A DNA stretch of 63,781 bases, the filler included, from Collodictyon triciliatum (taxonomy: Eukaryota), in the NCBI GenBank assembly GCA_043381765.1. It is 3 parts of 3 records of this genome, joined end to end, with 100 filler letters (N's around TTAATTAATTAA, not from the genome) between each part and the next. Parts side by side here need not be neighbours in the genome. Positions count along the whole stretch, not along the records: positions 1 to 28,588 come from JBHJMP010000937.1; positions 28,689 to 59,173 come from JBHJMP010000939.1; 1 more part is not named here. One strand, given 5' to 3'. Positions 15,481 to 35,186 of the stretch are shown here, one piece after another; position 1 is the stretch's first letter; the number at the start of each line of letters is the position of its first letter. Below the pieces are notes generated by a model, which ran no database searches, was not told where the DNA came from, and saw only the letters and a program-made list of their open reading frames with translations. Made by a program: the position numbers and the translations under genes.

Positions 15481-16705
15481 TCATTGGTCAGATTCATCGC
15501 AAAGGTGGAGCATTTGAAGTGCCTCAGCAAAAGTTTTGGTCATGGACGGCCAAGGTTTGGTAGTGTTTGTCCAGCAAGGCAAAGCAGTGATTCCGTTGGG
15601 GGCCTTTTTGATCTTGTGTGAGGCCAAGCACACTTTAGTACTGTCATAATTGGGCATATGTGACAGGTTCGGAAATGAATTGCATTTGGAAAAGAAGCTG
15701 TGCGTATTCTGCCATATGAAATGGGTTCATCGGTGAATAGGGGAGATGGGTTTAGGGTTTAGGGTTTAAGAACCTCGATGTTTTTTTCAGCTTCGATGCA
15801 AAGCTGGCTTAAACCTGATAATCTGGTAATCCACTCAGGAATACGATGGATCTTATATTGGTTGATTAATAGATAAACACGCCGTGATATATTGATGCAT
15901 ATCATATTAAAACCTACTTTAAACACATGATCAGTTTAACTGTATGTGCGTTGTACAAAATGATTGAAGGCGTGGCTTACAGGGTTTCCTTCGACATACA
16001 AACTATGCAGGTTTGTCAGCTCGCTCACAGAGTCGGGTATAGAGGTGAACTTGACATAAGTAACAGTTAATCTTATCTTTTTATTGTACTTTTGAAGAGT
16101 ATGTGTGATTTAGCGCTGGAGACATTAGGAAATGCTTTGACAGTTAAGAAATTACTCTGTAGACACTACATTAGTTTAAACAGATTGGCTGACAAACCTT
16201 ATTACATCCCAGGCCAAGAACCCTTAGCTGCGTCATTGTTGATATTGTGGATGGAATGGACGATAGCTGCAAGGGGTAGATACTTTTAAGGTCAGATTTG
16301 CTGAGAGGTTAAAGTGAATATGATATCACCTTCTAGGCTCCACCATTAAGGAGTCATCTTTATAATGAAAATAATAAAAGGCAATAATAATACACTTTGA
16401 ATCGAATAAAGGGAAAAAAAGGCAATGATAATAAAACCAATAAATGTAATTAAGCAATATGATATTTATTTTTGTATATAATATTGGTATAATTAAACTA
16501 TCATAGATAAGGCATAAAAGGACACTGCGTTACAAACATTATTCTGATATAGGTTTAGCTCATGTAAATGCTTGAGCTGAGACAGTCCTTCAGGGGCTTC
16601 AGTCATGCCCTCGTCCACAAGATACAGCAGAGTAGCCGCACCCAGGTCCCCCATCGGCTCGAAGAACGGTCGGAGTCTTTTGACCTCTGCCAAATCACCG
16701 CTCAT
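15481..16705 (-). CDS. Small leucine-rich-repeat protein, 5 exons
   Basis: Exons 16538-16705, 16198-16266 (LSSIPSTISTMTQLRVLGLGCNK), 15981-16049 (FTSIPDSVSELTNLHSLYVEGNP), 15774-15851 and 15481-~15612. All introns are phase 0. Confidence 0.85.
15748..15770 (+). repeat. Interstitial telomere-type repeat (TTTAGGG) x~3
   Basis: GGG TTTAGGG TTTAGGG TTTAAG inside an LRR-gene intron. Confidence 0.55.
16376..16433 (+). mobile_element. Ultra-short retroposon-like insert, copy 1
   Basis: AAAAGGCAATAATAATA [C ACTTTGAATCGAATAAAGGG AAA] AAAAGGCAATGATAATA. 17-bp TSD with 1 mismatch, in LRR intron 1. Confidence 0.8.
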
Positions 16706-17009
16706 ACTGCAAAAGCTGCTTAAAGAATCGGTCACTGCGCTGTTAATTCATTCTACCTTCCCAGTCGAACCGAAAGATTGGAATCATTGTTCCAGCGTGA
16801 TTGTATGCTTCCCTTTTTTTTTTTTCTTACTGTACAATCCTATCCTTTTCTCTAGGTCTGCGCCTCTTATTTATTATTATTTTTTTTTTTTCATTTACCA
16901 GCAGCTGAATCATCGATCCTTTAGCGCACAGCGCGCATATAACCCACCGATCGATGATAGTTTTGAATCAGCTTTTTTCACTAGCGTTTCCTTCAGCGGA
17001 TCTTTCCAA

Positions 17010-17115
17010 TACTATTACTTTTACTATTACTTTTACTATTACTTTTACTATTACTTTTACTATTACTTTTACTATGACTATGACTATGACTATGACTTTT
17101 ACCTTTACTTTTAAC
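17010..17115. repeat. Compound microsatellite (TACTATTACTTT)n / (TATGAC)n
   Basis: Tandem 12- and 6-mer units between the LRR and BolA genes. Confidence 0.9.
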
Positions 17116-17302
17116 TTTGCTTCGTCTTTTTTTTTTCCGTTTCGACTTCCGTCTAGCCCCATCCACCACATGAATGAATGGAGGAGCAAGATGTAATGGG
17201 CCACCTTCCCACCATCACTTTTTCACTCACCGCATCATTCGCGAGATTGTCTGATGATATTTCATATACCTTACAAAAAAAAAAAGGTACTTTGCCGCTT
17301 CC

Positions 17303-31419: not shown

Positions 31420-31458
<39 letters not shown>

Positions 31459-31769
31459 TTTTCTCTTTTTGTTTGTTAGTTTTTTGTTTTTGTTTTTTTT
31501 TTAGTTTGGAGACATCACCCACCCGCGTGGAATATCATGTCATTCTCGCTCACTTGCACGCAATCAACCAACCAACCAAAACAGGCCAAGTGTCGTCTTT
31601 GTATGCGTGCTGGAAAGAAAACACGGAGGCCGAGTATGCCGCCGCCAGCGTTGATGCGATTCGCACCCACCAGAAAAAGTCGCAGCATCAGGCGCAGCAC
31701 GTCAGCGAGTTTGTCAACAACTTGTCCTACTGGATGTGGAGATGTTGCCTCGGAGACTCTTCATTTTAA
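28689..31769 (+). CDS. SZT2 (KICSTOR scaffold)-like protein, C-terminal part (5' missing, internal gap)
   Basis: Exons read FLHQQYDGSFLIYELG, VRDKLHLGSFLYNYHL, FDLISAMKDFNKFF, APDMLSYLNSNCSKYGF and a terminal EFVNNLSYWMWRCCL. These resemble, in order, recalled SZT2 C-terminal blocks (H..SFSYDFHL; LYNY...H.S.Y; VVN..CF.LW..LL). Confidence 0.6.
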
Positions 31770-32328
31770 CGGCCGCCCGACTCCGGATTCCTTGGAGCAG
31801 CAGTGTTTTCTCTTCTCTTGTCTTGTCCTGTCTTCTCTTCTTATTCTGATTACCCATGAGCCCTTTTAAACAAGAGGAGGGGGGAAAAAGAAAGGAAAAA
31901 AAACATGAAAATACACATGGCTTTATGCATCAAACGAGAAATCGAGGGTGATTTATATAAAATAAAAAAGTCGACATACATTACGAATAAAGGCGCCAGA
32001 AGAAAAGAAAAGAAATTAAGAGTATAATACGTGCGTATGGTCATATCGAAGTGGTAACCTGCAGTTCTTTTCGGGTGGTATTATTTTTTGAGTATTTGAG
32101 CTGATTGTTTGTTTTTTTAATCACGTTTTCTTTTGAAGACGGTTCTCATTGCATGTGCCCACCTTTGCTCCTTTAATTCATCGAACAAAACTGCTCGATT
32201 TCTGCAATTCGAGAGGACCAAGCAGATAATGGATAATAGAACGCAGTTGCAGCTGCAGTTGCTTATATCGCATCGCAGGTTGGCCGAGGAAAGAAAGAGG
32301 AGAAAGCGGGTGTGGCTGGGATGGCCGA

Positions 32329-35186
32329 TTAAACTCGAGCCAAGGCCTGCTCCAAATCCTCGATGAGATCTGCCACATCCTCCGCTCCGGTAGAGAGGCG
32401 CACCAAGCCATCAGTGATTCCGACTCTGATTCTAAGATGACGGAGTTTTCTTCAGTGTACATATATATGCATCGATTTGATTGTCGATTTGGCGATTCGT
32501 GAAAGCCCGTCCAACATACAAAAGGAGAGAGATGAACCTCTACCTTTGCAAACAGACGTTTAGTATCATAAAGTGCGAGAAAATGATGCAAAAAGGTTAA
32601 ACCTCTCTTCTTGAGGCATGTCGGAGTGGGTCATTGTTGGTGGGTGGGTAATCAAAGATTCGACAGCCCCAAGATTTTCGGCTAATGTCCAGACTTTGAC
32701 TGAACTCATCAGTTTTTTTCCAGCTTCAAGTCCACCTTTCACCTGTTTGTCAAATGAACAGAAGTGGAGTGGGCACTAGAGACTTTCTACGGATTGTTTT
32801 ACTTCACATCGCTTTGGTCATTTCTCACGCTTGTGAATTACACTGAATAAAATAACACTTAGAAATTGGAAACATACCTCGAACCAAATCATCGCACCAA
32901 ACCCTTTTTGTTGTTTGCAGGCGAGTTCATACTGAGGAAAGGATGGTAATCCGGGATAGCACACTTTTTCGACCTGACGTAATATTGAATTAGTAATAAA
33001 TAAAAAAAAAAAACATATTTTTATATCCTAATTAATATTTCGTTTCGGAATATTGTATGTGACAAATATATCACTTTTCTATTCGTAAAAAGAAAAGGGA
33101 AAGGAAAAGAGTGAAGGGGAAAAATAAAAAGGAGCAAACATTCCAAAAAATAACTTTCATTGTATCATCTTGAAGAAAAAAAGAGAAATGAATTTATGTT
33201 CAACCTTCTCATGTGTCTCTAGAAACTTTGCAACTTTCATGGCATTTTCGCTCTGTTTTAAAATACGGAGAGACAGAGTCTTTGTACCCTGATAATAAAG
33301 TACTTATAAGACATGGTATTTTGTTAATTTATTGATAGAATTGAATTTTAACTTTGTAATTCCAATAAAACAAAAATACTCGAATAAGTTTCGATAGTGC
33401 ATGAAAAGAAACCAAAAAAAAAGTTTCGATAGTGCAAGCAAATGATGTTATATGATATAATCAACCAAAAAATAAAGAAAAAACCTGAAACTGTGTGAAG
33501 GCCACATCGGCAGACATTATGGTTCCACATGCCTTTTGAATAAACTTGACTTTTTCATGTAATTCCTTCGTAGCTGATATTATGGCACCTCCAATAGTCG
33601 CATTATGGCCATCGAAGTACTAGTTAATACACCAATCATAAATGGTTAATATTATCGATGGTGTTATGCTCGTCTAATTATTTTTTTTTTCATAGCTGGT
33701 AAAGCCCCAACTTGTCTTGGGCTGATTAAAGTTAGATTGTAAATCACCGCAGAGGGATGTGATGATTCACTGAAATAGAAGGGAAAAAACAATATGAGAT
33801 GGAAATCATGGCAAACTAAATAACGACATTAGGTTTCCCTATAGAGAATATACTTTGGTTGTTGATTGCACCACGATATCAGCACCGAGTTTAAGGGGTT
33901 GTTGGAAGTAGGGGGTGAGGAATGTATTGTCAACAGCATGAACAATTCCGTGCGGGCGAACCACATCGGATACAGCTGCAATATCGGTCAGCTTCAAAGT
34001 GGGATTGGCCGGTGATTCGGTAAAGAGGACTTTTGTATTGGGGCGGATGGCAGCCCGCACCTGTTTGGAAAATTATCGTAAAAAAATAATAATCATGATA
34101 CAGAGAGAATGAAGATTGGTGCAAAGGTTTTTCTTTCAGGTAGATCAACAAATTAACATATCCTATGAGAGAGAAAATGATGAGATTTTTTTTCCTTTAT
34201 TCGATTCAAAGTTGAGAAAATGATGAGATATTATTTCCTGTGTTAAGGGCTTACTTTTTCAGGGTCTGATGTGTCAACAAAAGATGTCTCTACTCCAAAG
34301 CGGCTCATCACTTTGCTTTGTAAACGATAGGTTCCTATATTCATGATTGTGTTTAAGGCAATTATTTCCATTTCAAAAAGAAAAAAAGGTACTTTACAAA
34401 TATTTTATTCTAGCTACTCCCGTAAAAATGAATATACATAAGGAAGTGAAAATAGCAGAGGAGGGCAAGTGTAAAAATAATATTGAAAAAAAATGGGTCA
34501 TCAGTCGAAAATAAAAAAAATACTCAAAGAAAACCTCCATAAGCGACATCGCTGAGGATGACGTGGTCTCCAGCGCTGGTAAGGGCAAGCATAAGAGATG
34601 TTGTAGCAGCCATACCTGTGGCAAAGCAGCATGCATCGTAACCTCCCTCTAAATCGGCGATTTTTTTCTCAAGAGCGCGCACAGTTGGATTCGATGCGCG
34701 TGAATAGCTGTATCCCTATGTTATTTGCATAAAGACCGTCACGAAGATAAAGGAATGTTTGAGTTTTTCCTCAATATTTTCTCCAAAGTTATTTTATATG
34801 AATAGGCTTGTACAAGGATTATTTTATATCAGTGCTAGTATAATTTGTTTGATTGTGATTGCGAATGGGAATTTAAATTACCTTCTCCATATATTGATCC
34901 ACGCTTTCTTGGACACTTTGCGTAGAGAGAAAGAAAACGTAGATGGAAATAAAAGGACATTATTCTTGAATTCTAAATTTGCATCTTTACATACTAGAAA
35001 ATTTTATCATTTTTTGGGGTCAGAGTTATTGCTAAGAGATATTGAGATATGTCCATATAGAAGCAAGGTATAAGTGTGGGCCCTTTTTGAAATCAGATGA
35101 TGCACGCACTGCAAGTTACAAACGCCTTTACATAGGCATATTTTTATTCGTTTGGGCTCCCATTATGTTGTTGTAATTTTATCGTT

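Follow-up and report, generated by a model that had tools for sequence, protein, structure and literature searches.

LINE (long interspersed nuclear element) copies are commonly truncated at the 5′ end, and the reading of a poly(A) tail, a variable target-site duplication (TSD) and a nick before A as the signature of target-primed reverse transcription (TPRT) rests on established knowledge of L1-type elements. The inserts described here lie in a window of 63,781 nt from Collodictyon triciliatum (assembly GCA_043381765.1; three parts joined end to end, with positions counted along the whole stretch) and are copies of a 19-mer, ACTTTGAATCGAATAAAGG. Like 5′-truncated copies of the L1 clade, these micro-copies have a poly(A) tail, a variable TSD of ~15–17 bp, an apparent pyrimidine|A nick and identity with the 3′ end of a parent LINE, whose relatives carry an APE-type endonuclease, a reverse transcriptase (RT) and a zf-RVT domain. 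Unlike such copies, they do not have a ragged truncation point, six of the seven readable copies ending at −17 to −20 (counted back from the A tail), and at 19–20 nt they are far below the usual copy length. By origin the micro-copies are 5′-truncated LINE copies, and they behave as if a very short unit had been copied in full. It is very probable that they were made by TPRT from the tail of an L1-like, APE-type LINE, with a preferred end at −19 ± 1–2.

Short interspersed nuclear elements (SINEs) that share the tail of a partner LINE, such as those of the tRNA-derived SINE/LINE pairs, or the Drosophila ‘suffix’, which matches the 3′ end of the F element, offer a second comparison. The micro-copies resemble them in being a discrete short unit with the 3′ end of a LINE, presumably mobilised by LINE proteins. 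Unlike SINEs, however, they probably depend on LINE transcripts, without transcription from their own copies, and they have no promoter-bearing head, there being no tRNA, 7SL or 5S part at or near the copies. For want of this head they fail the definition of a SINE. Platy-1, called the shortest known SINE in primates, is ~100 nt long (PMC4864456), against ~19 nt here. Retrocopies made in trans (processed pseudogenes and tail-only or ‘abortive’ insertions) have the poly(A), the TSD and the same insertion machinery in common with the micro-copies, but the source of the 19-mer is the LINE itself instead of a cellular mRNA, and its copies recur with the same fixed end on the 5′ side. In the full-text literature no paper containing the 16-nt core was found, nor any such family among descriptions of very short SINEs and retroposons, where only Platy-1 was returned, although this is not proof of absence. 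For ‘abortive retrotransposition’ the papers returned were general ones on L1.

A search of the window found four exact copies of ACTTTGAATCGAATAAAGG, at 16394–16412 (+), 23691–23709 (+), 25904–25922 (−) and 34194–34212 (−), where 0.05 would be expected by chance, and two further copies with two mismatches, at 21691–21709 (−) and 30011–30029 (−). When up to three mismatches were allowed there were six matches against 0.05 expected, a number reached in none of 100 shuffles. The four exact copies had been reported in the initial annotation, whose minus-strand numbers are the high ends of the matches, and they are confirmed; the copies at 21691 and 30011 had been missed. Short matches to the tail end at 31984, 54524, 8820 and 11639 were dropped, as they are without tails or TSDs.

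Each exact copy has its own TSD of 15–17 bp, perfect in two cases and with one mismatch in the other two, and in all four the 19-mer is followed by zero to three G and then by A7–A11, as had been described. Copy 1 (16376–16433, +) lies between repeats of AAAAGGCAAT[A/G]ATAATA (17 nt, one mismatch) and has an extra C at its 5′ end, one G and A7. Copy 2 (23676–23733, +) has the TSD AT[G/A]TTAGCACCACGC(A), of 15–16 nt with one mismatch, no G and A9, and its extra 5′ base is absent or ambiguous. The two copies on the minus strand have perfect TSDs and an extra A at the 5′ end: copy 3 (25874–25940) has the 17-nt TSD AGAATATTGGTCTATAT, three G and A10–11, and copy 4 (34171–34232) the 16-nt TSD ATCTCATCATTTTCTC, no G and A8. 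The nick contexts of copies 1 to 4 are T|AAAA, C|ATGT, T|AGAA and T|ATCT. The flanks of the four copies support the view, taken from the start, that the inserts carry a TPRT signature of poly(A), variable TSD and nick before A.

Whether such TSDs are more frequent than chance had been raised as a check, and this was addressed by a sequence-blind scan for an A-run of at least 6 followed by at least 12 nt that recur no more than 60 nt upstream. Poly(A)+TSD structures were present at 5 of the 247 A-runs of the window (98 on the plus strand, 149 on the minus strand), with a repeat length of 16–19 nt. The 247 A-runs of the reversed, but not complemented, sequence gave none. Nor was any obtained in 20 mononucleotide shuffles, a weaker control with only 15–37 A-runs per shuffle. 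The 19-mer copies account for four of the five. The fifth, at 33386–33436 (+), is a second kind of micro-insert, in which an unrelated 12 nt, TGAAAAGAAACC, is followed by A7–9 and bounded by the TSD AAGTTTCGATAGTGCA of 16–18 nt, with the nick T|AAG. It shares the insertion signature of the 19-mer copies, had a different template and may belong to the class of trans retrocopies. All five inserts have a pyrimidine|A nick, although n is only 5 and the exact nick is ambiguous because of the A tail.

Another explanation is that no retroposition took place, the structures being filler DNA from double-strand-break repair or an assembly artefact. The assembly does have gaps and linker-like blocks of N, and no RNA contig spans the junctions of copy 2 or copy 3. 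Break repair, however, does not make regular 15–17 bp duplications, and here each of four loci, in both orientations, combines such a duplication with an A tail on the same side and a pyrimidine|A nick context. The element is also found in independent RNA runs and in an unrelated protein record, P0013, both discussed below, and an origin other than retroposition is very improbable.

The exact 19-mer was scanned in public collections of metagenome, prokaryote-genome and viral contigs. It was found at 12 loci in the metagenome contigs, the only relevant one being on L003, a contig of 1157 nt; the other 11 have unrelated flanks, no LINE-like sequence upstream and no A tail, and were taken for chance matches. 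Six matches in prokaryote genomes, all in bacterial records of metagenome-assembled genomes, were also read as chance, their flanks not having been inspected, and the viral contigs held no exact match. On L003 the 19-mer and A10 come directly after 1027 nt of other sequence, which is the C-terminal part of open reading frame 2 (ORF2) of a non-LTR (long terminal repeat) retrotransposon with one frameshift. The C-terminus of this ORF2 matches zf-RVT (PF13966, E = 1.5e-7), and after it comes a pyrimidine-rich 3′ untranslated region (UTR) of ~95 nt. The last 19 nt of this LINE match the 19-mer at every base, so that the two have a common 3′ tail.

The same 3′ end is present in the window as an older and longer copy of ~108 nt at 21682–21789 (−), which was recognised by its match with L003 (955–1055 of L003 against 21782–21682 of the window, 91% identity) and extended to 21789 by local alignment. 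It spans approximately the whole ~95-nt 3′ UTR, beginning a few bases before the position of the ORF stop codon, and has a variant of the 19-mer with two changes, a decayed tail, AAATAAAAA, and no clear TSD. An all-against-library search gave 14 relatives of the L003 ORF. Four of these are ~1230 aa long and 25–38% identical to it; Exo_endo_phos (an APE-type endonuclease) and RVT_1 are present in all four and zf-RVT in three, which is an L1-like architecture. No longer relatives of the L003 ORF were found by word index.

Because it is contiguous with a LINE 3′ UTR and an ORF2 C-terminus in L003, the 19-mer is the 3′ terminus of a longer, L1-like non-LTR retrotransposon and not a free-standing unit. 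The initial annotation had taken the copies for a self-standing family of ~19-nt elements, and this has to be given up in view of L003, of the ~108-nt copy, which is the kind of 5′-extending copy it had suggested looking for, and of the RNA contigs.

The RNA contigs, from four RNA runs, were aligned to 23100–28400; the depth of such contigs says little about expression. In the bin containing copy 2 the summed contig depth was 297 in run X1 and 335 in run X4, compared with 0 in the three bins upstream, while the bins of the mtHSP70 gene had depths of ~1.7–57. Contigs had loose ends on both sides of the copy 2 element, so that the element alone is matched by contigs that derive from other parts of the transcriptome. 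Three X4 contigs run past the 19-mer, and their reverse complement, compared by eye, looks like the terminal part of the L003 3′ UTR, with which it agrees at 18 of the final 21 positions.

Many or high-depth contigs that match only the element, together with the uniform 5′ end, are what might be seen if the template were an independent ~20-nt RNA with its own gene, unrelated to any LINE, and the copies a true ‘micro-SINE’ family. The 19-mer is, however, contiguous with the LINE 3′ UTR in L003 (there also with the ORF), in the copy at 21682–21789 and in the X4 contigs. There is no Rfam family or tRNA-like head, and in the window the 3′ side of the copies never leads into a source sequence other than A. 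To our knowledge 19 nt cannot hold any known internal promoter. An independent RNA is therefore very unlikely; the discrete ~20-nt template that had been proposed stands as a possible fragment of the LINE RNA and falls as the product of a gene of its own.

Rfam gave a single family match in the window, a tRNA at 10876–10955, with nothing at E ≤ 1 in 21600–26000, and matches on L003 were at chance level only. The match at 10876–10955 (+) is a tRNA-Leu gene of 80 nt with the anticodon TAG.

An independent micro-copy was recognised in P0013, a protein of 136 aa from a public record of 561 nt. It is the ORF of the LINE with an insertion of 14 aa (42 nt) relative to L003 and to a second protein, P0001. 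The insertion consists of EREIN and IFFSFIQFK, so that the protein reads ...EREIN-IFFSFIQFK-EREIN..., and a T-run, CC and the 19-mer with one C-to-T change, when read in antisense, give IFFSFIQFK; the ORF across copy 2 in the window reads IFFSFIRFK. As judged from the protein, the duplicated EREIN corresponds to a TSD of ~15 nt, and 42 nt is consistent with 18–19 nt of element, A8–9 and the TSD. At this protein level the 5′ end would be at −17/−18. Since the P0013 copy is antisense in the C-terminal region of ORF2, it appears that micro-copies also land in the parent family. Of 18 proteins scanned, P0013 alone has such an insertion; nine proteins obtained with P0001 in a near-length search added no further case, and the antisense ORF across copy 2, used as a query for other read-through proteins, gave 19 candidates, none at E ≤ 10.

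The 5′ ends of the four young copies, 1 to 4, are at −20, −19/−18, −19(+A) and −19(+A). Of the remaining readable ends, that of P0013 has been given and that of the longer copy is at ~−99. The older copy at 30011–30029 (−), which has two mismatches, a decayed A-rich tail and no recognised TSD, has an upstream flank unrelated to the LINE 3′ UTR and is therefore also truncated, at ~−19. The single copy of the seven outside −17 to −20 is thus the one at ~−99.

LINE copies being so commonly truncated, ordinary random 5′ truncation has to be considered, the common end then being fortuitous or produced by the use of the 19-mer as query, and one copy in the window is longer, reaching ~−99. If ends were uniform over the ~95-nt 3′ UTR, however, the chance of three further copies ending within 2 nt of the first would be (2/95)^3, or ~1e-5. 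The 19-mer search is able to find longer copies equally well, and shorter ones were within reach of the sequence-blind scan, which gave no forms of the 19-mer tail of 5–18 nt or 21–60 nt in the window. P0013 is independent of the window and has the same end. Random truncation is accordingly highly improbable, in agreement with the earlier argument that the 5′ ends are too uniform for it. No continuum of lengths is seen in this small sample; of the scenario that the initial annotation had named as a refutation, in which the copies would merge into a LINE through a continuum of 5′ lengths, the merging was seen and the continuum was not.

Two candidate causes of the fixed end were rejected. An origin in a splice acceptor or branch point was dropped, CAG|C being found at −19/−20 in one LINE variant and absent from L003 and the X4 variant; none of the 19-mer copies carries the spliced leader sequence described below. 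A self-cleaving ribozyme setting the 5′ end is unsupported, as no Rfam ribozyme or small-RNA family was found.

What the data show directly are the copies with their tails and TSDs, the continuity of the 19-mer with a LINE 3′ UTR and ORF2 C-terminus, and its occurrence in RNA contigs; we infer which enzyme was at work, that the mechanism was TPRT and why the 5′ end is fixed. An APE-type LINE is indicated by the tails, the TSDs and the pyrimidine|A nicks, together with the domain content of the relatives. The endonuclease of the element would nick the target between a pyrimidine and an A, releasing a T-rich 3′ end that would anneal to the poly(A) of the LINE RNA and serve as primer for the cDNA. 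A staggered second nick 15–17 bp away would give rise to the TSD, and in most recent events the cDNA would end 19–20 nt above the tail.

The most likely cause of this end, with about even chances, is that the template itself ended at −19/−20 and was a stub of the LINE RNA. Such a stub could arise by endonucleolytic cleavage at an exposed C|A step or by 5′-to-3′ decay halted at a tail-bound protein; still held by the RT, it would be copied to its end. The more specific proposal, that a discrete polyadenylated LINE RNA stub of ~19–20 nt, cut or trimmed to the footprint of the tail-bound protein, is the preferred template of the RT, is offered tentatively.

A template that ended is favoured by three features. 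Folding gave a hairpin of −0.3 kcal/mol for the 19-mer (z = +0.35) and z values of −0.92, +0.03 and −1.05 for the 3′ UTR, with no structure better than those of shuffles, so that no stable RNA structure able to block the enzyme is predicted at or above −19. Two of the four copies (3 and 4) have an extra A in place of the C of the LINE, which is what non-templated addition on reaching a template end would give. Finally, the TSDs of the 19-mer copies are of full length and microhomology is without consistency. In human L1, short TSDs and more microhomology mark truncated copies, and copies that reach the end of the RNA have less microhomology (PMC2912911). In this respect the micro-copies are unlike truncated human L1 copies.

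Several points weigh against the reading of the inserts as TPRT copies of a LINE tail with a preferred end. The sample is tiny, consisting of six copies in the window and one case at the protein level, and the reading does not account for the zero to three extra G between the 19-mer and the A tail. L003 is a metagenome contig, not demonstrably from the organism of the window, and it ends before the RT and endonuclease domains, which are seen only in distant relatives (25–38% identical). No LINE coding sequence was found in the window by tblastn with 14 LINE-related proteins, the only match being the P0013 insertion peptide, on copy 2. One contig, present in X1 and X4, has a different sequence just upstream of the 19-mer and shares no more than the final ~8 nt of the LINE 3′ UTR, so other lengths or subfamilies exist. 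No RNA contig crosses the junctions of copy 2 or copy 3 and there were no indel rows, so the contigs are uninformative on empty-site alleles; nor was an RNA 5′ end at −19 observed, contigs being unable to show RNA ends. Finally, the 12-nt insert at 33386–33436, with the same type of tail, TSD and nick, suggests that the enzyme may routinely stop very early and yield very short cDNAs.

This last point favours an explanation that concerns only the fixed 5′ end, namely that the template is full-length LINE RNA from which the RT is regularly released after ~19–20 nt, repair then joining the short cDNA. In one variant, it would be the TPRT complex that lets go, as it passes from initiation to elongation. 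The scatter of the 5′ ends over ~3 nt (−17/−18 in P0013, −19 and −20 in the window) also agrees with an early stop. A failure of processivity should, however, spread the lengths, and the scan showed neither shorter nor intermediate tail forms. The lack of a predicted stable structure at or above −19 speaks against an early stop as well, as do full-length TSDs without consistent microhomology, when set beside the truncated human L1 copies of PMC2912911. An early stop is the main rival and is on balance less likely than a template that ended.

Should a stub of the LINE RNA be the template, the micro-copies would be the smallest retroposon family described, with ~30 bp inserted, no promoter and a continual supply from LINE transcripts. 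They could outnumber ordinary LINE copies while being invisible to repeat finders, and, depending on orientation, they would scatter AATAAA signals or T-run-plus-AG motifs through introns and outrons. If the fixed 19–20-nt end holds genome-wide, it would provide a handle on what decides the end of a LINE copy and would bear on the minimum template length of TPRT. The insertions, ~45 bp with the TSD, would then be a source of hidden structural variation and the copies good presence/absence markers. If the fixed end does not hold genome-wide, ordinary LINE truncation would be the explanation.

Short introns hold three of the four young copies, probably so for copy 1, and the fourth is upstream of a putative trans-splice site. 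Copy 1 is between two pieces of minus-strand ORF (16174–16308 and 16496–747), to which Pfam gave no family, and is probably in an intron, antisense to a predicted, unverified gene. Copy 2 lies ~275 nt upstream of the acceptor at 23966, in an outron or intergenic DNA, and has the same orientation as mtHSP70. Copy 3 is antisense in an mtHSP70 intron that follows the exon 25728–25820 and precedes an exon of 76 nt, and it is skipped by spliced contigs. Copy 4 is in the sense orientation in an intron of a minus-strand gene for a Cys/Met-metabolism pyridoxal phosphate enzyme, the exons of which match profile positions 102–130 and 128–198. Copies 3 and 4, for which the exon structure is confirmed, approximately double the length of their introns. 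Depending on its orientation, each insert introduces a polyadenylation signal or (when antisense) a stretch of pyrimidines with AG after it.

The mtHSP70 gene (23966–28400, +) has more than 20 short GT..AG introns of 84–170 nt (15 joints listed and 8 more), and contigs of lake and freshwater metatranscriptomes from several studies contain nearly identical exons. In runs X1, X4 and X6 the mRNA begins at 23966 with a leader of 21–23 nt, (TA)GCTAACACTACCTAATCAAAG, placed two bases before the likely ATG. The window has no match to this leader, even with three mismatches allowed, and a full-text literature search for part of the leader found no paper. A non-genomic leader at 23966 points to spliced-leader trans-splicing in this organism. 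In a protein atlas the nearest clusters belong to a mixture of animal, fungal and algal phyla and give no placement of the organism.

Some further features of the window were recorded. On the minus strand there are homopolymer runs of 63 and 67 A, at 22960–23022 and 28860–28926, each directly after ATGAC; no TSD was seen by eye at the A/T runs preceded by this motif. Further A-runs, of 34–41 A, are at 30662, 31421 and 51067. The blocks at 28589–28688 and 59174–59273 each have 44 N on either side of 12 bases, which in the first block read TTAATTAATTAA, the letters of the second not having been read; they look like a six-frame-stop linker at contig joins and not like biology. Larger N gaps are at 30696–31374 and 49439–50023. 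Very long microsatellites, of the (ATT)n / (ATA/ATG)n and AAAG/AAAAG types, are present at 11912–12057, 40932–41120, 43187–43310 and 60116–61006, and the two ATT/AAT arrays, 29 kb apart, are reverse complements of each other.

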